From a virus (taxonomy: Duplodnaviria; Caudoviricetes), in IMG/VR virus record IMGVR_UViG_3300034410_000187, positions 1 to 28,999 of that record: 28,999 nt of DNA; one strand, given 5' to 3'. The translations under genes were made by a program, and so were the position numbers. Below the pieces are notes generated by a model. That model worked only from the letters and a program-made list of their open reading frames with translations. It was not told where the DNA came from and ran no database searches. This document shows positions 5,109 through 27,491 of the stretch, piece by piece (positions within the stretch are counted from its first letter, which is position 1; each line of letters starts with the position of its first letter).

Positions 5109-6521
5109 ATGGCTGGATCATTTACTGGGAGCGAATTAGCTCTCCAACATTTAACTCCACGACCAGTTAAGGGATTGTTTGGCGACAATTACCTAGCAGT
5201 CGGGGACCTAGACTTTACGCAACAATTTTTGCCTGAAGTTTACGAAAAAGAAGTAGAACGATATGGAAATCGTACTATCTCTGGATTCCTACGTATGGTA
5301 GGTGCAGAAATGCCTATGGCATCTGACGTAATCACTTGGTCTGAACAAGGACGTTTACACATTGCTTATGACGACGCGGCTGTAGCATCGACTACTTCGC
5401 TAACATTGCCTGCTGGCCACTTGATTGGCAAAGGAATGACTATTGTTGTTTCTAAAGGCTTTGATACTCAAAAAGCATATGTACAAGACGTAGTTGGTCA
5501 AACTGTAACTGTAGATACTTACGGCGAATTAGCAGGTCTTACAATGACAGGCAGCGACGTAAAAGTATTTGTATACGGTTCTGAGTACGCTAAAGGAACA
5601 GAAAATGCTGGTAACTCAGTTGACGCTTCTTTCACAACTTTCAACAACAAACCAATTATTCTTAGAGATAAGTATAATGTAAATGGTTCTGATGTTGCTC
5701 AAATTGGTTGGGTAGAAGTAACTACTGAAGCTGGAACTTCTGGATACCTATGGTACCTAAAGTCTGAGCACGAAGCTCGTATCCGTTTCGAAGATCAACT
5801 TGAAATGGCTATGGTTGAAGCAGAAAAATCATTAAACGCTGATGGATCTACAAGAAATATTACAGCTGCTGCTGGATTTGGTGGTGGTACTAATATTACT
5901 GGTTCTGAAGGTTTATTTGCTGCACTAGAAGAAAGAGGATTAGTTTATGCTGACTCTGCATTCGGTGGCGCTGATGGGCTTGCTGACTTTGATACTATTT
6001 TAGCTGAACTAGATAAGCAAGGAGCTATTGAAGAGAACATGATGTTCTTAGACCGTGGCACTTCCTTGGCTATCGATAACATGCTAGCTGCTCAAAACTC
6101 TTACGGAGCTAACGGAACATCTTACGGTGTATTCGACAATTCAGAAGATATGGCACTAAACCTTGGTTTCTCAGGATTCCGAAGAGGTTCTTACGATTTC
6201 TACAAAACTGACTGGAAATATCTAAACGATTCTACAACTCGTGGATTAGTCGCAGATGTTGAAGGTGTGATTGTTCCTGCTGGAACTTCTACAGTTTACG
6301 ATCAGCAACTCGGAAAGAACATCTCTCGACCATTCTTACACATCCGCTACAGAGCTTCTGAAGCTGATGACCGTAGAATGAAGTCTTGGGTGACTGGATC
6401 AGTAGGAGGTAACTATACTTCTGACGCTGACGAAATGAACGTACACTTCTTGTCAGAAAGAGCGTTGTGTGTTCAAGCTGCTAATAACTTCGTATTATTG
6501 AAGGCTATTGCACCAGCATAG
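5109..6521 (+). CDS. Major capsid protein (470 aa, HK97 fold expected)
   Basis: Position after the scaffold gene, typical size, strongly biased codon usage suggesting high expression, motifs QQFLPEVYEKEVERYGNR and LNLGFSGFRRGSYDFYK, and a terminator downstream. Confidence 0.9.
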   Translation: MAGSFTGSELALQHLTPRPVKGLFGDNYLAVGDLDFTQQFLPEVYEKEVERYGNRTISGFLRMVGAEMPMASDVITWSEQGRLHIAYDDAAVASTTSLTLPAGHLIGKGMTIVVSKGFDTQKAYVQDVVGQTVTVDTYGELAGLTMTGSDVKVFVYGSEYAKGTENAGNSVDASFTTFNNKPIILRDKYNVNGSDVAQIGWVEVTTEAGTSGYLWYLKSEHEARIRFEDQLEMAMVEAEKSLNADGSTRNITAAAGFGGGTNITGSEGLFAALEERGLVYADSAFGGADGLADFDTILAELDKQGAIEENMMFLDRGTSLAIDNMLAAQNSYGANGTSYGVFDNSEDMALNLGFSGFRRGSYDFYKTDWKYLNDSTTRGLVADVEGVIVPAGTSTVYDQQLGKNISRPFLHIRYRASEADDRRMKSWVTGSVGGNYTSDADEMNVHFLSERALCVQAANNFVLLKAIAPA

Positions 6522-7377: not shown

Positions 7378-7416
7378 ATAATGGTTAGGCCATCTTATGG
7401 GTGGCCTAATTATTAT
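7378..7416 (+). other. Intergenic RNA hairpin (terminator, processing or stability element)
   Basis: ATAATGGTTAGGCCATC-ttatg-GGTGGCCTAATTATTAT forms a 17-bp stem fully paired when G-U pairs are allowed. No clear U-tract follows. Confidence 0.65.
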
Positions 7417-16742: not shown

Positions 16743-17372
16743 ATGATACCAGTAGGAGCAGCGATGGGCGCTATAAAGGGCCTAACCGGAATAGCGGGTG
16801 GTATTATAGGTAGTGGAAAAAGAAAAAGAGAAGAAGCAGCGGCTCAAGAAGAGTACGATATGTTCAAAACTCAATATGCTGAACTTGACACATCTAACCT
16901 ATACGCTAACTTAGAAAATACTATGGAAGACTTAACTGTCGACCAAAGAGCAGCGGAGTTCCAATTGCAGGCACAGCAACAAGGGCAAGCTAACATTATG
17001 CAGAATCTTCAAGGGGCAGCTGGTGGTAGTGGTATTGCAGCGTTGGCGCAATCAATGGCTAATCAACAAACGCAAGGTGCAGCTCAAGCGGCAGCGAGCA
17101 TAGGGCAACAAGAAAGAGCCAACCAAATGGCCAGAGCGCAAATGGCTGGATCATTACAAATGGCTGAAGCTGGTGGAGCTGAAACAGCTAGAGGATTAGA
17201 ATATAAGAAAACAGGTACTCAATTAGGTATGGCTCAACAAAGATTAGGCGCTGCAAAACAAGCAAGGGCGGCAGCTACACAATCTATAATGGGTGGTGTA
17301 GGTGGCTTACTCGGGGCTGGTGTAGAAGCTGGAGCCGCTCCAGGCGGATTTCTAGAGAAAATTGTAGGCTGA
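16743..17372 (+). CDS. Probable internal virion/ejection protein (209 aa)
   Basis: Gly/Ala-rich hydrophobic ends flank a Gln/Ala-rich helical core. It follows the tail genes, as podoviral ejection proteins do. Confidence 0.65.
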   Translation: MIPVGAAMGAIKGLTGIAGGIIGSGKRKREEAAAQEEYDMFKTQYAELDTSNLYANLENTMEDLTVDQRAAEFQLQAQQQGQANIMQNLQGAAGGSGIAALAQSMANQQTQGAAQAAASIGQQERANQMARAQMAGSLQMAEAGGAETARGLEYKKTGTQLGMAQQRLGAAKQARAAATQSIMGGVGGLLGAGVEAGAAPGGFLEKIVG

Positions 17373-17385
17373 TAAATAAAATATT

Positions 17386-18651
17386 ATGGCAAAAAAACAA
17401 GGTATTAGTTATTCCGCAGATGCAGGTTTGATACGGGGCGAAGGGGCCATGCGGCAAGCAGGCGGTTTCGTTGACGCTGCTAAAGCTATAGGCGCTGGAC
17501 TCGATAGAGCTTCTAACCAGATGGCTAAAGCAATGGCTAATCGCGAAAGAAAGGTAGCGGCGATAGACGCTAAAGTAGCTAACTCTATTAGGGCAATGAA
17601 AGGCAATGTTGACGTTACTGGGCTTTCCGCAGCAGACCAAAAAGCTGTTAACACTTTTTTAATAGAGCAGAAAGACATATATGCGCAAGCAGCAAACCTT
17701 GCGGCAACATTAAAGCCAGGGACCCCAGAGTATACCGCGCAAGTTGATATTATGAACAATGTTAATAATGGCTTTGTAACCTTAAAAGAAAACCTAGACT
17801 CTTATGAGTTGGGGCAAACACAATATACGGATAGCTCTCAGGATTTTTCAAAAGGGAACAATATAGGTGACGCAGAATTTAAGTCAAATGTGTTTCTCGG
17901 TAAAACACCATTTAAAGTTGGTGGTGGTGGTAATTTACTTTTTTCAAGCCCCAAGGGGGAGGTTGATTTTAAAGATATTAACATGCCATTTAAGAAAAAC
18001 TACGAGGCAGCTTTAGAGCTAGACAACATGTATAAAGCCGTTTACTCGTCCGGAGGTTTTGATGAATCTCAAAGAAACTCCTTTGAAACTAAGTTAAGGG
18101 CAATGGCAGCGTCAAACCCTGATGCTTTTAAATCCGTCGTAGCAGATGGTTTAAATTCTTATGCGAATTACAGCAATATAAGCCCTGATATGATTGATGA
18201 TCCTGCGCAACAAGATAAGTTTATAGAAACATTTATACAAGATACTTTAAATGGAGCTCAAAAGGCCGCTGCAGCTGGTAAAGCTAAAAAAAATGATGAA
18301 GAAGGAAATAACAAGGGTGCAAGAACTCCGACTCCATCAGCGATAGTAAGGGGAGAGGAAATATTTATTAATGGTAAAAGCATGGGGGTATACGACTATG
18401 GTTATGGTTATGACGCTAACGGTAACTCAGTAAAATATTACAGAAAGCCCCACGGCGACTCTAAGTGGAGCACAACCCTAGGACCTGTTCCTGACTCTAC
18501 AACAACTCCACCTACTGAAGAGGCGCCTACTACTAAGGAATATCCAGAATGGGTTGAAGACAAAAATTTATATGATGATCTTAAAGCTAAATACCCAGTA
18601 GTAGACGAGGCCATGTACGCCTATAAGCTAGAAGAAAAGAATAAACAATAA
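17386..18651 (+). CDS. Probable internal virion/ejection protein (421 aa)
   Basis: Ala-rich helical N-terminus and a Pro/Thr linker near the C-terminus. It sits between the small and giant cargo genes. Confidence 0.55.
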   Translation: MAKKQGISYSADAGLIRGEGAMRQAGGFVDAAKAIGAGLDRASNQMAKAMANRERKVAAIDAKVANSIRAMKGNVDVTGLSAADQKAVNTFLIEQKDIYAQAANLAATLKPGTPEYTAQVDIMNNVNNGFVTLKENLDSYELGQTQYTDSSQDFSKGNNIGDAEFKSNVFLGKTPFKVGGGGNLLFSSPKGEVDFKDINMPFKKNYEAALELDNMYKAVYSSGGFDESQRNSFETKLRAMAASNPDAFKSVVADGLNSYANYSNISPDMIDDPAQQDKFIETFIQDTLNGAQKAAAAGKAKKNDEEGNNKGARTPTPSAIVRGEEIFINGKSMGVYDYGYGYDANGNSVKYYRKPHGDSKWSTTLGPVPDSTTTPPTEEAPTTKEYPEWVEDKNLYDDLKAKYPVVDEAMYAYKLEEKNKQ

Positions 18652-18665
18652 TATAATAAAATAAT

Positions 18666-21600
18666 ATGCCAGATTATAAATTACTTAATGGCGGAATAGT
18701 CAACACTGATGATTACTCGCAAGAGCAAATGGATAATTTTCTTAATGATTTTCCAGGGGCAACACTTGTAGAAGAGGATTTTCAAAACGGAGCTGCGGGG
18801 ACGGATGCGCCTGCAACTCCAGTAATGCCAAGTCGAGCATCCATAATTGCGGGTGTTCAACCCGAAGCTACGGAATTACCATCGGAAGATACTTCTTCGG
18901 AATTACAAAAAGGTGACCAAGGTTATTATAGACAAGAGCGTAAAAAAGGTAGAAGCGCTGAATCTATACGTAGAGAATATTACAGAGAAGGATCCCCGGG
19001 CGCTATAGCTTACGATGCAAAAATGCAGAAGCAAGTTGATACAGCACAAGGTTTACTCACGGATATAGACCCTGAGCTAGAAGCTGAGGCTAAAAAAATA
19101 GCAGAAGATAATCAAGAGTTAGTACTCGGTATAACAGCTGAAACAGAAAAAAATAATATACTAGCAAAAGAGTTTAAGCTAGGTGAACTTAAGTCTAGAA
19201 ACCATAGAGATGGTTATGCTAGCTATGGCGGCGTGGCTACATCTGTAGCTAGGTTTAAGTCAGATGAAGAATATGAAGATTATCTTAAAAAGCAGTTAGG
19301 TAATAAATACGATAGGTATAAAGAATTACAAAGCAGCGCCGAAGAGTTTGGTATGACTCTAAACAAAGATAATATAGCTAACTTTGCTACATTAGATGAT
19401 GCCAGCACCGATACCCAAGCACAGGTTATATATGAGGCACAAAAATCTGCTTCAGAAATACCATTAAGAAATGTTGACGATGATGCCAAAACCTTAGCGG
19501 AATTTTACACTGGATCAGAAGCTGTACAAAAAAAGAAAAAAGATGCCTATGCTAATGCTGTTGCGCAAGCAAAAAAAGACCAGGACGCATACTTTAAACT
19601 TACAGGTAAAAGTTTAGTTGAAAAACAAACTATTGACGGAGTTACGTATAATCCTATTCCGGATATAGAATCAACATTAGATGAAGTTGAAAAACAAAAT
19701 CAAATAGAAATTGGGCGTAGACTAGAGGCTTTTGAAAAAAATAAAGTTAATGTAAATAGCGACATTGAATCACTTGAGGCTTTACAAAAGCAAATGCAAG
19801 AGTATTCTACTATTAATTACAATGCACCCGATCAGCTAGCTATAAGGAATAATTTAATTAAGCAGGAAGAGGATCTTTTAAATAAAATAAATGCTCAAAT
19901 AATTATACTGAATACTGAGTCTACGGCATTGACAAACGAAATTGAGCAAGCTGGAGCCGCAGGAATAAGCGATGCTGCTTTACTTAAGTCATATAAAACT
20001 ATGGATAAGTTGGCTAATGTTTGGGATAGTGCATTTGTAGGCAGCGCTAAAATGCTAGGTGGAGGTATTGCAAGAGTGTTTGGAGATGAAGAAACTTATA
20101 ACGCAGCGATAGACTACAATCAAAAGCTACAGGAATATAGCGAAAAGTATTTACCAGGCAATTTAACAATGGATGATGACAGCACCGCTTGGCAGTATGC
20201 TGGCGACATGCTTGTTAATAATTCTCCCTCCATAGCTGTTGCATTGGCCACAGCCGGATACGGAAGTGTAGCTGCCGCGGGGGGTGGTGCAGTTGCAAGG
20301 GCAGCGGCAACAAGAGTAGCCTCAAGGTATGCTACAGGCGCATTTTTTACAATGGAAGCGGGTGGACAATTGTCTAATCTTGAAATAGGGCAGCGTAATG
20401 CCCCTAAAGTAATTGCCGGGTTAAAAGAGGAGCTTAAAGCAATGGAAGAATCAGGCGCTGCGGTAGCTGATATAAATAAAATTAAAAGCCAAATACAAGA
20501 CCAAGAAGATCTGTTAAGCTTAGGTATGTTCCAAAAAGGCCTTAATAGTGTGGTATATGGTGGTATTGCGGCTGGAGCAGAAAGAATAGGTACATTGGGC
20601 TTTATAAGTAATTTTCAAAAGTATTCAAGGTCTGTTGGCGGAAATCAATTTAGAAAACTATTCGGGGATGCCGTAGGCTCAAGAGTTGCTAAAAATGTAG
20701 GTTTGCTTAATGCAACAGGTATTGGAGCAGGTATTGAGTTTTTAGAAGAGGGCATGACGCTTATAGGTCAAAACGCGTCTGACAATATTATATTCCAGCC
20801 TACTAATGCTAAGAGCCTTATAGAAGGATTAGATGGTGAATTCTTTAGGAACACTATGGTAACGTCTTTAGCTATATCAGGGCCTAGCGTTAGTCAAAAC
20901 ATATATAGTCAAGTAGCAGATGCTGTTAAGACTAGGAAGCAAAGCCGCAGGGAAGGAGAAATAAGAGACGAATTATTTGGTATTCAAGCGGAGTTAGAAA
21001 AATTAGATGGACGAACTGCTGAAGCTAGAGCATTAAAAGTTGAAAGAGATCGTCTTATTACTGAAGCGGGCATAGAGAATACTGATGTCATGCTTAACCT
21101 TAAAGATCTTACCGGCAGTGAAATTGAAACTGTATTTGAAAACCATGCTGAAATACGTAGGTTAAAACTTGAGGCACGGGATTTAGATGTTACAGATTTA
21201 AATAAAAAAGAATTTGATAGATTAAACGCTAAAGCACAAGAGTTATTTAATGCTAATCAAAAAATGCTTAGCAGGGGCGAAACTAATATAGAAAAGTTCG
21301 CTAAAAACACAGCAAACCCAGTTGAAGCTGAAGTTAACGCTAGAACTTATAATACTTATAAATATATAGCTGAAAACAATCCAGGTATAAATAGTATAAT
21401 AATAAAAGACAAGGCAGAAGCTTTGGCTTATGCAGACCAGGCTTTTAAAGACGATGAAGCTGGTAAAAAACAATTTTTAGACAACTACGGTAAATCAAAC
21501 GCTTCGTTTGAACAAAACGGCGATCAAATTATTTATGAAGAAGTTGTTTTAAATCAAATGTCACAGGGCGGTATAAATGCTCGAATAGCTGCGGTATCGC

Positions 21601-24600
21601 CTTTGCATGAGATAGGACATCAACAGACTGTTGCGGCTGGTTTAATAAAGAATGATAAGTTGGCGGTTGATTCTGCTAATGAGCTTGTACAAAACATATT
21701 ACAAGACGTACAGTCTAGGTTTGAGCAAGGTAAAATTACGCAAGAAGAGATGGATGTTTTTAACCAGCGTATGTCTTTTTATAAAGAGTTAGGAAAAGGA
21801 AAGTATACTGAAACTAACGGTGTTGATGCCGATGAGCTTATACAGCTTGTAGGAGACTTTACAGCAATAGGTATTTTGCCTAAAAGTAGTTACGGTAATT
21901 TGTTTGGAGCAAAAACATTTATTAATAATTTGTTGCAAAAATTTAATGGTGATATGGCGCCGTTATTTAAAATTAATAGCCCCAACGATGTTTACGCTTT
22001 TGTTGCTAATTTTCAAAACAAAGCTGCTGGTTTTCAAATAAAGAAAGGTATAGCTGGTAGCGGAATAACCAAACAGCAAATAAGCTCTGCTGCGGCAAAA
22101 AGTAACGCAAGAGTTAATCTTATAACAAAAGAACAACTAGCTGGGCCTAGAGCGCAAGCATTGTTATTTGAAGAAATTACCAACATGGTTGCCGCTCAAA
22201 TAGCCGGCAGATATACATTGCCACCTCAAGCGTTACAAGATTTTACAGCTGAAGTTGTTGGAAGAATATACTTAGCTAAAGAAAATACAAAGTGGGATGG
22301 TAGAGGCCAATTAAGTGGTTTTCTCGGCGGAAGAATTAGTTTGCGTATAGCCGACGTTGTTAGGGCTGAATATAAACTACAGCCAACCGAAAGACAATTT
22401 TTAGGTACGGTAGACAATTTACAACCTGAAGATCAAAAAGATTTGGCTGTACCAGAGCAAGCTCCGGTTGCACAAGAAAAACCTAAATACAGAAATCTTA
22501 CACAAACAAAAATACTGCCAGCGGAGCAGGCTAAAGCCGTAGAGCAAAAAATAGTATCTATAGCTAGAGTATTAAAAAGTAGATTAGATGCACCATTGGG
22601 GCCTAACGCATCTGTAACGCCTATTATCAATGAACTAAAGCGTGAGCTTGGCAAAGCAATCGATATTGAGTTTAAAAAGATGTTAGGTAAAAAGAAAGGC
22701 GATGAGCTTAAGAAAAATGTACTTAGGTATAAGAAAGCTATACTCGAAAACATGACTACCACATGGTTGATGCAGGCTATGCCATTTGCAATACAGAAAT
22801 CTGTTGGTGGCACCTATAAAGTTGACGGGGAAGGTAAAAGAGTTAAGGATTCTAATGGCGATTTTATATTTATACCTAAATACACTAGCGAATGGCAAGG
22901 CAAAACAATAGATAGAGCAAAGACATCTACTAAGCAGCAAGGTAAAACATCAGGCCCTGAAATAGTAAGGCGTTTGCCAAATGCAGCAAACAAAATTACC
23001 GACGAACAATTCCTTAGTTATATGTTTAAAGACGGTGACGTTATACGTGGTCGTAAAGAATCTTTATCTAAGGCATTAGCAGAAGAGTATGGTTTTGATG
23101 TTATAAACGATGCCTTAAAGAATCCCGATAGCCCTATAAGCCAAGCTTTTGAAAACAATCAAGAGATGCTTGGTATGGCTATAGCAGATAACTTCGTTGA
23201 AGAAGTAGCAAAGCAAAGTGAACGTGGTCTTGTTAAAAGAAGTGCTATTGTAAATACCCAAACAATATTTAGAGATGCGCTAGCATTAGAAATAGAAGGG
23301 GACTTGAATGGTTCATTAGCGCTATTAGAAACATTGTCAGCTGAAGATAGAGCAGCATATGAGGATATTACTGCTAATATAAAAGTTGATACCGCTAGAT
23401 ATAAGCAATCTATTAAGAAGTGGAAAGATGCACCAGAAAATGTGCAGCCATTTATTGATCAGTATTTTGAAAATAATTCAGCTCGCGACAACAAGCAAGC
23501 AATGAAGGAATACTATCAATTTAGTACAGCCATGATAGACGCTCTACCAAATGCGCTAGTAAAAGCTTTGGGAGCAGATTTCTTTGGTGCTCATTATAGA
23601 TATTTAAATCCTAAAGAAGCAAAGTCTTTGGGAGCTAAGATAAGAGCGAAAATAGATGCTTTACCTAATACAAGCGAAGACATAGGATTTAATCCTGAGG
23701 ACATGCGCTTAATCCAAGCTGGCTCAGGCTTAGTTGGTCAAATAACAACAAATATACTAAACAAAAAGTTTGAATCCGCGCAGGCTAAGGTTGATGCGTT
23801 TTTGGAAAAGTACGGGGAAGAGGTTGATGCTTTAAATATTGCAAACAAAAAAGCTATTGAAATTGTTGTATCTACAGCGTTTGATATTGCTATAGCTAAA
23901 CCACAGCAAGCTGTTGGATTCTTAAGAATGCTAGAATCTACCACAAACATAGGTAAGTCCCTTAGATCATTGACAGGTATTAGTGATATTCAAATGACCG
24001 CTGAATCACAAGCTGTTTACATAAATACCAAAACTGGGCAAGGTTACAGTAACACTTTAAATGCTTCGCAAAAAGCAAAAGTAGAGACTGGAGAAATTGC
24101 ACTTAATGAAAACCACCCTAACTATAAGGAGGCTAAAAAGTTTATAGAAGATGGTTCAAAGCAAACCCTTCCGCAATTATTGCGAATTAAAGGTGAGCAT
24201 GCCACCCCTTCATCTAACTTTAATGTTTCTGTTGCTAAAGAGTATTTAACTATGCTTGGGATTGCTTTGCAAAATCCAGGTGGTGTGCAACAAGCTAAAG
24301 ATGCTTTAATTGCAAAGATTAATGAATTAACCGTAGAATTTAATCAACAATTAAATACTAAAGTATTATCTGATTTGCAAGACGCTAAGCTAGGGTCAAC
24401 CAGCGATATTGGCGATTTAAGATTATTAGCTATACCTTTGGAAAGTCAAAATGCTTTTTACGATATAAAAGGATTACAAACAATTGGTAGAGTACAAACT
24501 TTGTTAAACACAATGTTCAGCGCTAAAAATGTCGCAGAGCGTGCTAAAATAGCTACAGAACAAAAGGCTATAAACAACGCTAGAAAGCAATCATACGCTG

Positions 24601-27491
24601 CTAACCCTAAGGGAATTAGCGTATATGACTTTGACGATACACTTGCATTTAGTAAAAGTGAGGTTATAGTTAAAATGCCTCCAAATAAAGAAATACTTGA
24701 TATTGCTGCAAGAAGATTGTTTGCAAATCAGTTTAAAGATCTACCAGGTTATTTAAGAAAATTTGAAACTCTTACAAAAGAAGAGCAAGCGAGAGTATTA
24801 AAAGATGTACCACGTACAACTAAAAAAATAACACCCGCTGAGTTTGCAAAACAGGGAGACCAACTTGCTAAGTCCGGTGCTGAGTTTGATTTTAGCGAAT
24901 TTAATAAAGTTGTTAAAGGTACACCAGGGCCATTAGCACCAAGGCTTAAAAAGGCAATAGAAAAGTTTGGTAATAAAAACATATTTGTATTAACAGCTAG
25001 ACCACAAGAATCGGCGGTTGCTATACACGCATTTTTAAAAGGTCTAGGTTTAGAGATACCACTTGAGAATATAACTGGACTAGCTAATGGTGCTCCAGCT
25101 GCGAAAGCCGCGTGGATGGTAGGTAAAGTTTCAGAAGGTTATAATGACTTCTATTTCGTAGATGATCATATGGGCAACGTTAAAGCTGTTAAGGATATTC
25201 TTAATACATTTGATGTTAAAGGCAAAGTGCAGCAGGCAAGGGTTAAAAGAAGCGCTGCGCTAGGTAAGGACCTTAACGATATGATAGAGCGTAATAAAGG
25301 CATTGCCTCGGAAGCTGTTTACTCTAAAATTAGGGCTAGAAAAGAAGGGGCTAAAAAAGGTAGGTTTAAAGTTTTCTTACCGTATGGCGCAGAAGACTTT
25401 AGAGGGCTAACGTCATATACATTAGCTGGCAAAGGCAAGCAGGGAGAAGCTGACCAAAAATTCTTTGAGGATAATTTAGTTGTGCCGTACATGAGAGGCA
25501 TATCCGCTATGGAAAAAGCTAGACGTGCGCTTAAGAATGATTTTGCAACATTGTTAAAAGCGTTGCCTGGAATGAAAAAACGTTTAGGTAAACAAATTGG
25601 CGACACAGATTATACTGTTGACCAAGCTGTACGTGTTTATTTATGGACGCAGCAAGGGCAGGAAGTTCCAGGTATATCTAAAAGAGATCAAAAGAAATTA
25701 AATAGTCTAGTAGCCAAAGATCCAATGTTAACATCATTTGCCCAAGGCTTGCAAGCTATATCAAAACAAGATCAATGGCCCGCTCCAAGTGATCATTGGG
25801 TAGCAGGTTCTGTTTTAAAAGATATTAATGAAATTAACGAAGTGCTTACAAGAGGGGAGTACTTGCAGGAGTTTAACGATAACGTTGATATTATATTTGA
25901 CGAAAACAATTTAACCAAACTAGAAGCCGCATACGGTACGCGTTATGTAAACGCTTTAAAGAACTCAATAGCTCGAATGAAGTCTGGTCGTAACAGACCG
26001 GCGCAGCCAGGGGCTTATGAACAACAATGGTTAAACTGGGTTAACAACTCTGTAGGTACTATAATGTTCTTTAACCGTAGATCAGCAGCAATGCAGATGT
26101 TATCATTTGCTAACTTTGTAAACTGGAGTGATAACAATCCGCTAAAAGCTGGGATTGCATTTGCTAATCAGCCAGCTTACTGGAGCGCGTGGTCAAAAAT
26201 ATTTAACTCCGACAAACTTAAAGAACGTCGCGGTGGTTTAAAATCTGATGTACAAGAACAAGAGATCGCTAACCAAGCTAAAAATAGTAAAGACAAAGCG
26301 AGCGCTGTAATTGCATACTTATTAAAAATAGGATTTACACCTACACAAATTGCGGATAGCTTTGCTATTGCAACAGGGGGAGCTACGTTCTTAATTAACA
26401 GAACAAAAACTTATAAGAAAGAAGGTTTATCACAAGCGGAAGCGGAAGCAAAAGCATTTGAAGACTTTAGCGCTATATCCGATGAGACGCAGCAATCAGG
26501 TGATCCTATGTTGGTATCTGCACAACAGTCGAGCCATTTAGGACGTCTTATATTGGCTTTCCAAAACACGCCGATGCAATACACTAGATTGATGAAAAAA
26601 GCTGGCCAGGATCTTATAAACGGCCGTGGGGATGCTAAGACTAATATTAGCAAGATAGCTTATTACGGGTTTATACAAAACCTTATATTCAGCGCGCTGC
26701 AAAATTCATTATTTGCATTAATACCAGGATTTGATGATGAAGAAGAAGACGATGAGCAATACGAAAAAATCATTAATACAAAGACTGAAAGAATTGTTAA
26801 TTCTATGGTGGACACTATTCTTAGAGGATCTGGATTAACCGGTGCGGTAATATCTACATTAAAGAATACTATTAATAGATATTATAAAGAAGAGAAGAAA
26901 GGTTATAATGCTGATCACGCTTATACGCTATTAGAACTAGCGAACGTATCACCGCCTATAGGTTCTAAGATGAGGAAAGTATACGGTGCAATTCAAACTA
27001 AGAAGTTTGACAAAGATGTAATGGCTGCGCAGGGTTGGGATGTTACATTAGACGGTAGATTTAATATTTCTCCTAATTACGAAATATTAGCATCACTTTC
27101 ATCCGCTGGATTAAACTTGCCGTTAGACAGAGCGTTAGCCGAAATAGACGGTATATCTGAAGCTCTTGATGCTAGGAATACATCTTATCAAAGATTAGCT
27201 TTGGGATTAGGTTGGAGAACATGGGATGTTAAAGCTAGAAAAGAGGAAGAAGAATGGGCTAAGCTTGTTGGTAAAGCAAATCGTAAAGCAGAAGGCAAAA
27301 AGAAAGCTGCTGAAACAAGAAGGCTAAACAAACTGAAAAAAATAGAAGAGCTTGCGGCAATGACTCCTGATGAAAAATCACGATACCTATTAGCAGAAAA
27401 AGCAAAGCGAAAAGCAGCAGCTAAAAAAGCGGCAGCCACAAGAAGACAAAACAAAAGAGTAAAAGATTCAATACTAAGTTTAAAAAATTAA
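18666..27491 (+). CDS. Giant multidomain virion cargo/ejection (polyvalent-type) protein (2941 aa)
   Basis: Contains coiled coils, Gly/Ala hydrophobic segments (about 20030-20890), HEIGH zincin motif (21606-21620), a sigma region 2-like segment (22161-22376), HAD motifs DFDDT/LTAR/VDD (24627-25166) and a basic C-terminal tail. Confidence 0.75.
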   Translation: MPDYKLLNGGIVNTDDYSQEQMDNFLNDFPGATLVEEDFQNGAAGTDAPATPVMPSRASIIAGVQPEATELPSEDTSSELQKGDQGYYRQERKKGRSAESIRREYYREGSPGAIAYDAKMQKQVDTAQGLLTDIDPELEAEAKKIAEDNQELVLGITAETEKNNILAKEFKLGELKSRNHRDGYASYGGVATSVARFKSDEEYEDYLKKQLGNKYDRYKELQSSAEEFGMTLNKDNIANFATLDDASTDTQAQVIYEAQKSASEIPLRNVDDDAKTLAEFYTGSEAVQKKKKDAYANAVAQAKKDQDAYFKLTGKSLVEKQTIDGVTYNPIPDIESTLDEVEKQNQIEIGRRLEAFEKNKVNVNSDIESLEALQKQMQEYSTINYNAPDQLAIRNNLIKQEEDLLNKINAQIIILNTESTALTNEIEQAGAAGISDAALLKSYKTMDKLANVWDSAFVGSAKMLGGGIARVFGDEETYNAAIDYNQKLQEYSEKYLPGNLTMDDDSTAWQYAGDMLVNNSPSIAVALATAGYGSVAAAGGGAVARAAATRVASRYATGAFFTMEAGGQLSNLEIGQRNAPKVIAGLKEELKAMEESGAAVADINKIKSQIQDQEDLLSLGMFQKGLNSVVYGGIAAGAERIGTLGFISNFQKYSRSVGGNQFRKLFGDAVGSRVAKNVGLLNATGIGAGIEFLEEGMTLIGQNASDNIIFQPTNAKSLIEGLDGEFFRNTMVTSLAISGPSVSQNIYSQVADAVKTRKQSRREGEIRDELFGIQAELEKLDGRTAEARALKVERDRLITEAGIENTDVMLNLKDLTGSEIETVFENHAEIRRLKLEARDLDVTDLNKKEFDRLNAKAQELFNANQKMLSRGETNIEKFAKNTANPVEAEVNARTYNTYKYIAENNPGINSIIIKDKAEALAYADQAFKDDEAGKKQFLDNYGKSNASFEQNGDQIIYEEVVLNQMSQGGINARIAAVSPLHEIGHQQTVAAGLIKNDKLAVDSANELVQNILQDVQSRFEQGKITQEEMDVFNQRMSFYKELGKGKYTETNGVDADELIQLVGDFTAIGILPKSSYGNLFGAKTFINNLLQKFNGDMAPLFKINSPNDVYAFVANFQNKAAGFQIKKGIAGSGITKQQISSAAAKSNARVNLITKEQLAGPRAQALLFEEITNMVAAQIAGRYTLPPQALQDFTAEVVGRIYLAKENTKWDGRGQLSGFLGGRISLRIADVVRAEYKLQPTERQFLGTVDNLQPEDQKDLAVPEQAPVAQEKPKYRNLTQTKILPAEQAKAVEQKIVSIARVLKSRLDAPLGPNASVTPIINELKRELGKAIDIEFKKMLGKKKGDELKKNVLRYKKAILENMTTTWLMQAMPFAIQKSVGGTYKVDGEGKRVKDSNGDFIFIPKYTSEWQGKTIDRAKTSTKQQGKTSGPEIVRRLPNAANKITDEQFLSYMFKDGDVIRGRKESLSKALAEEYGFDVINDALKNPDSPISQAFENNQEMLGMAIADNFVEEVAKQSERGLVKRSAIVNTQTIFRDALALEIEGDLNGSLALLETLSAEDRAAYEDITANIKVDTARYKQSIKKWKDAPENVQPFIDQYFENNSARDNKQAMKEYYQFSTAMIDALPNALVKALGADFFGAHYRYLNPKEAKSLGAKIRAKIDALPNTSEDIGFNPEDMRLIQAGSGLVGQITTNILNKKFESAQAKVDAFLEKYGEEVDALNIANKKAIEIVVSTAFDIAIAKPQQAVGFLRMLESTTNIGKSLRSLTGISDIQMTAESQAVYINTKTGQGYSNTLNASQKAKVETGEIALNENHPNYKEAKKFIEDGSKQTLPQLLRIKGEHATPSSNFNVSVAKEYLTMLGIALQNPGGVQQAKDALIAKINELTVEFNQQLNTKVLSDLQDAKLGSTSDIGDLRLLAIPLESQNAFYDIKGLQTIGRVQTLLNTMFSAKNVAERAKIATEQKAINNARKQSYAANPKGISVYDFDDTLAFSKSEVIVKMPPNKEILDIAARRLFANQFKDLPGYLRKFETLTKEEQARVLKDVPRTTKKITPAEFAKQGDQLAKSGAEFDFSEFNKVVKGTPGPLAPRLKKAIEKFGNKNIFVLTARPQESAVAIHAFLKGLGLEIPLENITGLANGAPAAKAAWMVGKVSEGYNDFYFVDDHMGNVKAVKDILNTFDVKGKVQQARVKRSAALGKDLNDMIERNKGIASEAVYSKIRARKEGAKKGRFKVFLPYGAEDFRGLTSYTLAGKGKQGEADQKFFEDNLVVPYMRGISAMEKARRALKNDFATLLKALPGMKKRLGKQIGDTDYTVDQAVRVYLWTQQGQEVPGISKRDQKKLNSLVAKDPMLTSFAQGLQAISKQDQWPAPSDHWVAGSVLKDINEINEVLTRGEYLQEFNDNVDIIFDENNLTKLEAAYGTRYVNALKNSIARMKSGRNRPAQPGAYEQQWLNWVNNSVGTIMFFNRRSAAMQMLSFANFVNWSDNNPLKAGIAFANQPAYWSAWSKIFNSDKLKERRGGLKSDVQEQEIANQAKNSKDKASAVIAYLLKIGFTPTQIADSFAIATGGATFLINRTKTYKKEGLSQAEAEAKAFEDFSAISDETQQSGDPMLVSAQQSSHLGRLILAFQNTPMQYTRLMKKAGQDLINGRGDAKTNISKIAYYGFIQNLIFSALQNSLFALIPGFDDEEEDDEQYEKIINTKTERIVNSMVDTILRGSGLTGAVISTLKNTINRYYKEEKKGYNADHAYTLLELANVSPPIGSKMRKVYGAIQTKKFDKDVMAAQGWDVTLDGRFNISPNYEILASLSSAGLNLPLDRALAEIDGISEALDARNTSYQRLALGLGWRTWDVKARKEEEEWAKLVGKANRKAEGKKKAAETRRLNKLKKIEELAAMTPDEKSRYLLAEKAKRKAAAKKAAATRRQNKRVKDSILSLKN
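18776..18842 (+). promoter_or_regulatory. Predicted -1 programmed ribosomal frameshift signal (slippery heptamer plus H-type pseudoknot)
   Basis: In-frame G_GAT_TTT (18776-18782), spacer CAAAAC, stem 1 18789-18799/18810-18820 (11 positions, one C-A mismatch, one G-U), and stem 2 GGATGC 18803-18808/GCATCC 18837-18842. Confidence 0.65.
18782..18916 (+). CDS. -1 frame extension (44 aa, SKRSCGDGCACNSSNAKSSIHNCGCSTRSYGITIGRYFFGITKR) of a predicted 83-aa transframe protein starting at 18666
   Basis: Open -1 frame from the slip site to TGA at 18914-18916. It is bounded upstream by TGA at 18746-18748 and has no ATG of its own. Confidence 0.5.
   Translation, partial: SKRSCGDGCACNSSNAKSSIHNCGCSTRSYGITIGRYFFGITKR

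Follow-up and report, generated by a model that had tools for sequence, protein, structure and literature searches.

A probably programmed −1 frameshift at the start of a giant gene in aquatic bacteriophages

Many aquatic bacteriophages likely make a small, unannotated second protein at the start of one giant gene, and comparison of their sequences predicts that it helps to load or release the giant protein. The initial annotation of the DNA analysed here had proposed a short frameshift protein that carries the N-terminus of the giant one, and this proposal is now supported by a slip site, by stems that covary and by a −1 frame motif that is conserved. Because slip site, pseudoknot and −1 peptide are conserved together, ribosomes likely shift frame at this place. 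Comparison across relatives gives strong evidence of a programmed −1 frameshift, and we consider it very probable that the shift is real and used; that the tail encoded in the new frame functions as a peptide is also quite probable.

The window, i.e. the whole stretch of DNA that was analysed, is a virus record of 28,999 bases carrying a morphogenesis block, in which terminase, portal (phrog_6547), probable scaffold, capsid and tail genes are followed by genes of 209, 421 and 2941 aa. Its relevant features are these:

5109-6521: capsid gene (phrog_13704; PF23898 below cut-off)
16743-18651, plus strand: two upstream presumed cargo genes (209 aa and 421 aa)
18666-27491, plus strand: giant ORF of 2941 aa (0 frame), third gene of the presumed ejected-cargo block
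18666-18773, plus strand: shared N-terminal mini-domain, aa 1-36, predicted beta-beta-alpha-beta
18746-18748, plus strand: TGA closing the −1 frame upstream
18776-18782, plus strand: slippery heptamer G_GAT_TTT (codons 37-39, GAG GAT TTT)
18782-18916, plus strand: −1 frame ORF of 44 codons and TGA (18914-18916), the putative trans-frame tail
18783-18788, plus strand: spacer of 6 nt
18789-18799 / 18810-18820, plus strand: stem 1, 10 pairs of 11, with a C18793·A18816 mismatch and one G·U pair
18803-18808 / 18837-18842, plus strand: stem 2, 6 Watson-Crick pairs
18821-18836: loop 3 of 16 nt, besides a loop 1 of 3 nt and a 1-nt junction
18869-18904, plus strand: conserved −1 motif YGITIGRYFFGI, three residues before the stop

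The cultured phages nearest by capsid protein are Elemovirus (45%), Pervagoviridae (38%) and Pachyviridae (22%), all of which infect Flavobacteriia, and the 85 capsid tblastn hits comprised Flavobacterium, Cellulophaga and Maribacter phages plus one unclassified phage. Against PF23898, used as a test for crassvirus type, the window capsid scored 20.4 bits with a cut-off of 27. The giant protein has no Pfam family above cut-off and no PHROG family; its counterpart in phage phi18:3, gp123, matched by the position of its gene, is annotated as a virion protein from MS/MS. By analogy with the cargo proteins of crassviruses (PMC10172136), the giant protein may be ejected. Near residue 1000 it has an HExxH-like motif and near residue 1990 a HAD-like one, DFDDT, again without a family above cut-off. 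Contigs from three independent runs cover most of 18500-18905 with 0-1 differences, so the site is no assembly artefact. Elsewhere in the window, a strong inverted repeat at 7378-7410, between the genes for 256 and 261 aa, has the second-best structure score and is possibly a terminator or processing site. Promoter and terminator scans of the window stayed at chance level.

The heptamer, spacer, loop and stop positions of the initial annotation proved to be correct. The −1 frame is closed upstream by the TGA at 18746-18748, is open for 44 codons past the slip site and lacks ATG as claimed, with GTG and TTG absent too, and the predicted product has 39+44 = 83 aa with 5 Cys and 1 His. The pseudoknot likewise has its stems, loops and spacer where they had been placed, except that stem 1 consists of ten pairs and a C·A mismatch instead of eleven pairs; its span, 18789-18820, encloses loop 1, the 5′ strand of stem 2 and the junction base. 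This geometry may resemble that of the coronavirus IBV pseudoknot, to which it had been likened. Scored by a stacking-energy measure of our own, in place of a validated pseudoknot program, this site comes out as the top H-type pseudoknot among 28,889 plus-strand positions of the window. A nested fold of this one sequence does not reach significance (z −0.85, with 37 of 200 shuffled versions doing equally well), and Rfam gave no covariance-model match, the best E-value of 0.74 being to an unrelated miRNA family. The single window sequence is thus weak evidence, and it is the data from homologues that place the cassette far beyond chance in spite of its unremarkable fold.

If the −1 frame is translated, what has been kept in it along different lineages? 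Homologous loci were gathered through neighbouring genes, among them the 209-aa gene, and hence independently of the motif: 170 loci had the 209-aa gene, 138 of them reached the giant gene, and 85 were left after removal of near-copies. With a regular expression written after a first inspection of sequence matches, a motif of the type [YW]GΦxΦGx[WY]F[FI]G was found in the −1 frame within the first 150 codons of 51/85 giant genes and in neither of the other frames (0, +1) in any of the 85; 2261 control windows gave 0, 3 and 0 matches in frames −1, 0 and +1. Two further loci carry variants of the motif, which brings the total to 53/85. In the alignment of 49 loci (two divergent ones were left out), Gly is encoded by all four GGN codons and Phe by both of its codons, whereas the residues read in frame 0 are variable. 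The base entropies at the three −1 codon positions are, in order, 0.79, 0.50 and 1.32. The motif has four invariant positions at fixed spacing. The conserved −1 motif that the initial annotation had asked for is therefore present, and it shows synonymous variation in its own frame.

The −1 stop is also positioned. No stop falls at motif +11 to +13 in any of the 51 loci (background 0.147 per codon), 37/51 have one at +14 to +16 where about 19 are expected, and the motif lies 14-18 codons ahead of the stop in 45/51. From 31 to 47 open −1 codons are kept past the slip site, and 139/145 of the −1 segments lack ATG, GTG or TTG. A DNA-pattern scan detected 119 viral loci, and the number of stored viral stretches with one narrow form of the motif is estimated at about 460. 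The full architecture is found in 117/119 of the viral pattern loci versus 8/120 matches in bacterial genomes, a negative control of mostly unrelated sequences. Some cassette contigs (L429, L446, L468, L493, L518, L524 and L536) have been binned in MAGs of Flavobacteriales, Gammaproteobacteria and Parvibaculum, and these are probably mis-binned phage contigs. In one further locus (L042) the cassette is present and the 0 frame stops 42 codons past the motif, with no giant ORF.

The cassette appears to be dispensable in some lineages, since 32/85 relatives lack both motif and pseudoknot; they form several separate clusters (12 changes on a quick tree). In the fetched flanks we detected no gene that compensates in the motif-negative loci and none that separates them from the motif-positive ones. 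The −1 peptide had no Pfam or PHROGs match above cut-off, its profile found nothing credible among PDB sequences (best E 0.14), and tblastn against GenBank phages returned only E of 2 or more. A profile search of 1.84 billion proteins returned 27 proteins of 54-127 aa, 26 of them with the motif at or near the C-terminus; these are not counted as evidence because several appear to come from assemblies with indels. A metatranscriptome run yielded only short pieces of relatives, which are not counted as expression.

The slip site is conserved as a class. With slip classes that, like the motif expression, were partly drawn up post hoc on data already seen, a slip-class heptamer stands in register in 48/51 motif loci versus 5 and 5 in the other two registers, the background being 32% of 9758 control segments. 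The three misses carry T_GAT_TTT. The form G_GGA_AAN alone accounts for 19/51 loci versus 0.3% of control segments, and the strict XXXYYYN form for 27/51 in register versus 4 and 3. Thus the conserved heptamer expected of the homologues exists, and its sequence varies: the relatives have G_GGA_AAN, A_GYA_AAG, N_NAT_TTT or A-runs at this position, and the 74 strong-pseudoknot loci have GGGAAAG (24), GGATTTT (10), AGTAAAG (9), AGCAAAG (9), AAATTTT (6) and others, with a spacer of 6 nt in 51/74. On the tree of the neighbouring 209-aa protein the slip class changes 14 times (minimum 3), a count that recombination between this gene and the giant gene could inflate. G_GAU_UUU satisfies the X_XXY_YYZ test through the G_GA exception listed in PMC5009743. 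The same source lists G_GGA_AAG as highly shift-prone in E. coli, and documents this and NNA_AAG sites for bacterial ribosomes. The label "RNA-virus-style" given earlier to the site is accordingly weak, as G_GAU_UUU is one of several interchangeable sites, with G_GGA_AAG the commonest (24/74), and bacterial ribosomes are already known for pseudoknot-stimulated −1 shifting; frameshifting in the capsid gene of phage PSA also involves a pseudoknot (PMC5009743).

Downstream of the slip site, a pseudoknot score of −20 or better was obtained in 42/51 motif loci, compared with 7/549 downstream slip-like heptamers, 6/306 base shuffles and 57/306 synonymous recodings; from the last figure, the 0-frame protein sequence explains part of the structure signal. 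A search blind to the slip site, at −25 or better, found pseudoknots in 41/53 motif-positive versus 1/32 motif-negative genes, and its matches mostly start 6 nt past the heptamer. Both stems have compensatory changes, as covariation would demand. For stem 1 in ungapped register, 69% of cells pair across all 98 loci without a poly-A run versus 54.5 ± 1.4% after row shuffling. In a set of 40 loci, of which 34 were picked as pseudoknot-positive in that register and 6 had no call, pairing reaches 90.9% of cells versus 76.3% and double changes number 53 versus 19, counts which relatedness inflates; compensatory changes occur at 6/9 pairs. The 5′ strand of stem 2 finds its own 3′ partner in 50/54 loci and a foreign one in 178/1446 swaps, partners being exchanged between loci with different 5′ strands. 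Metagenome contigs of other strains match the window from 18777 onward with unrelated 5′ flanks, and their listed differences inside the pseudoknot lie in loop 3.

A second class of loci probably reaches the same tail in another way. A run of nine or more A replaces the slip site and pseudoknot signal in 47/145 loci, all from the pattern scan, and a pseudoknot was scored in 3/47 of these versus 74/98 of the others. A dedicated scan gave 110 distinct poly-A loci, 104 of them in phase, with runs of 9 (24 loci), 10 (84) and 11 (2) A; the ATG frame is continuous with the giant ORF in 107/110 of these metagenomic loci. Elsewhere in these genes such runs occur once in 296,195 nt. Runs of nine A or T are known slippage sites of RNA polymerase (PMC5009743), and slippage of the polymerase or of the ribosome on A9-A11 is the likely route of these relatives to the tail. 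The window locus itself is not of this kind: it has T4, and the longest run anywhere in the window does not exceed 8. In one locus (L028, minus strand, 885-1178) an A-run of 8 makes N-domain and motif a single ORF of 98 aa and puts the giant ORF out of frame, which is either a variant or an assembly indel; in the single-sequence model of this ORF the tail is of low confidence, and its last 6 residues are omitted from the coordinates.

Poly-A runs at the cassette position are also present in cultured phages, with A10 in phi38:1, Calle_1, elemoE and Gundel_1 and A11 in MW202828. Their −1 tails are basic and contain aromatic residues and Gly, without a match to the strict motif. The −1 tail predicted after A10 in phi38:1 gp101 would give tryptic peptides including AFGIEFYLWSGSFK and FGWFR. 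For phi38:1, public mass spectra of virions and of infection (PXD066074 / MSV000098485, given in PMC13288928) and SOLiD RNA reads (SRP066570), perhaps too short to span the run, are available. In phi18:3, phi19:3, phi46:3 and phi13:2 (Pachyviridae) and in Panino the run is A9, the giant gene is split, and WFFG-type tails lie in frame −1 to the giant ORF. The split records are L550 (34729-35052), L552, L553 and L554 for the four Cellulophaga phages, where the N-terminal part is annotated as a separate small gene and the giant gene has a late start, and L226 (19112-19294) for Panino, whose tail has the aromatic-glycine motif twice in tandem (19254-19380). The idea that the split genes represent three-way slippage was dropped, given that A10 in Gundel_1 yields a continuous gene, as do 107/110 of the poly-A loci. 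Homopolymer under-calls in sequencing are the likely cause of the A9 splits. Panino was sequenced on MinION, and the Cellulophaga phages reportedly by 454. Five GenBank records with the giant gene split at the A-run are thus an annotation trap.

The predicted products have 53-135 aa (median 86). AlphaFold2 on an alignment of 24 rows gives the N-domain a mean pLDDT of 86 and a compact shape, its end directly preceding the slip site, which would therefore mark a domain boundary. Relatives have several dissimilar or unrelated types of N-domain, exchanged right up to the slip site; for example, phi13:2 and phi18:3 differ up to the A-run. Searches of Pfam and PHROGs with the N-domain gave nothing above cut-off, those of the ESM Atlas only hypothetical clusters below 0.8, and fold searches were weak (best Z 3.3, rmsd 3.0 over 41 aligned residues, to a BRK domain), establishing neither a match nor a new fold. 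The conserved part of the predicted product is the basic aromatic-glycine tail.

What would such a protein do? Our slightly favoured reading is that a fraction of ribosomes shifts to −1 at codon 39 and produces an 83-aa assembly adaptor of the giant protein. The pseudoknot would pause the ribosome over G_GAU_UUU, the tRNAs would re-pair one base back, and translation would run on for 44 codons and stop a few residues past the motif. The product would then unite the N-terminal mini-domain of the giant protein, a linker and the basic aromatic-glycine tail, which the giant protein itself lacks. The tail may dock on a virion part such as the portal, the inner capsid or the tail nozzle, and the shared domain may associate with the giant protein or with its binding site, so that a set ratio of adaptor to cargo would result. 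This model follows lambda gpG/gpGT (PMC5009743), with the difference that the shifted product would be the short one. The chances of an adaptor role for the giant protein, which is argued from analogy, seem to us about even. It is burdened by the variation of the N-domain between lineages, which a partner-specific adaptor would have to tolerate, and the cultured relatives, with their diverged tails only, count against it as well.

The tail could instead make the short product a small membrane-active protein that inserts shallowly in the host envelope at ejection or anchors assembly. The last ~20 residues have a median net charge of +4, the 12-aa motif has a mean hydropathy of 0.7, and crassvirus cargo proteins have been proposed to form a trans-envelope channel (PMC10172136). 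On the other hand, in 100/145 loci no uncharged run is longer than 8 residues, so the tail is mostly unfit for a transmembrane helix, and four invariant positions at fixed spacing would suit a protein pocket better than lipid; on balance we find this reading unlikely. Still less credence is due to the view that the frameshift mainly sets the dose of the giant protein. In that view the tail would mark the product for degradation or, at the −1 stop, make the nascent chain pause, and the short protein would be jobless. The distance of the motif from the stop speaks for it, 14-18 codons being the span of the ribosome exit tunnel. Truncating frameshifts that set a ratio are known from dnaX (PMC5009743), but an immediate −1 stop would suffice for this purpose, yet 31-47 codons stay open and the final residues before the stop are not conserved.

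The initial annotation had gone further and suggested that the product could set the stoichiometry of the giant protein, anchor it or be its Cys/His metal-binding chaperone. What stands of the last idea is the recurrence of Cys in the pseudoknot class, where 84/98 loci have two or more; at two fixed positions Cys is found in 44 and 48 of 54 loci, and G·U pairs persist at these base-paired positions though C-G would be stronger. However, 33/47 poly-A loci have no Cys, which makes the idea weak; 12/98 pseudoknot-class loci lack it too, the motif being kept in both groups, and the His is not conserved. Moreover, Cys can arise by chance, because Ala and Val codons after T give it automatically in the −1 frame: at 20222-20374, where the giant gene encodes a hydrophobic segment rich in Ala and Gly, the −1 frame is open for 51 codons and rich in Cys, and this stretch serves as an internal control. 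We therefore regard a metal chaperone as improbable. Finally, it is very improbable that there is no trans-frame protein at all and that the pattern stems from a linker motif in the 0 frame or from a non-coding signal in RNA or DNA. The fold of the single sequence is unremarkable, and a loose Ser/Glu pattern lies in the 0 frame over the motif bases; but variation in the motif peaks at the −1 wobble base, which in the 0 frame occupies codon position two, and slip site, pseudoknot, open frame and stop are present or absent as a set.

It is useful to compare the adaptor reading with known systems. Lambda shifts from G to GT at G_GGA_AAG. As in lambda gpG/gpGT, a −1 shift at a set ratio would give two products with a common N-terminus in virion morphogenesis, and the new-frame segment would, as in lambda, bind another virion part (PMC5009743). 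Here, in contrast, the shift comes as early as codon 39 of 2941, the module is of podovirus type, the product of the shift is short and the pseudoknot covaries. The lambda-type combination of a 3′-end shift in a short chaperone gene next to the tape-measure gene, giving a longer product, was not found at the locus, nor was a match to a chaperone family. The frameshifts of T7/T3 gene 10, Lactobacillus phage A2 and Listeria phages PSA, A118 and A500 also lie in phage structural genes (PMC5009743). Those shifts lengthen a capsid or tail protein at its C-terminus, whereas the one here bypasses about 99% of a gene that is neither capsid nor tail, the capsid gene being at 5109-6521 and no capsid or major-tail extension being found at the site. 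In dnaX, where tau and gamma arise by a ribosomal −1 shift in E. coli and by transcriptional slippage in Thermus thermophilus (PMC5009743), a change of frame likewise makes the shorter product and two mechanisms lead to one outcome, as in our pseudoknot and poly-A classes. But the dnaX stop follows one codon past the shift, in contrast to the conserved, functional-looking tail here, and the proteins are unrelated.

The gene order of crassvirus phiCrAss001, with portal, capsid and tail genes followed by cargo genes (gp45-gp50) that end in a very large one, resembles that of the window (PMC10172136). It differs in that the main text of that paper does not contain the word "frameshift", and in the cultured phages nearest to the window, namely Elemovirus, Pervagoviridae and Pachyviridae. 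In the phiCrAss001 map an unassigned segment of 14 residues, similar in size to our motif, is bound to the muzzle protein in six copies; it is helical, and its authors favour gp45 (PMC10172136). Programmed −1 shifting, pseudoknot stimulators and poly-A slippage are already known. In searches of open-access full texts we found no report that places them at the 5′ end of a giant gene for a virion protein, where they would yield a short product with a conserved tail, and "frameshift" occurs in the main text of none of PMC10172136, PMC13288928, PMC8776804 and PMC11590407. Parts of PMC10885494, PMC5335546 and bioRxiv 10.1101/2025.10.02.679949 also entered this comparison.

More broadly, it is possible, and we put it tentatively, that podophages of the aquatic Flavobacteriia type, as a large group, have an unrecognised virion protein within the 5′ end of the giant gene, encoded by a portable cassette that outlasts exchanges of the N-domain and of the recoding mechanism, and acting as an adaptor or plug that loads and gates cargo proteins several thousand residues long. 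If the frameshift is true, it would be a third recurrent frameshift site of tailed phages, beside those of tail chaperones and of capsid or tail extensions, in an abundant aquatic group. In the relatives, nature would supply a range of interchangeable slip sites on a single pseudoknot scaffold, with a switch to poly-A slippage, and the short protein may help to explain how such phages package and dose their giant ejected proteins.
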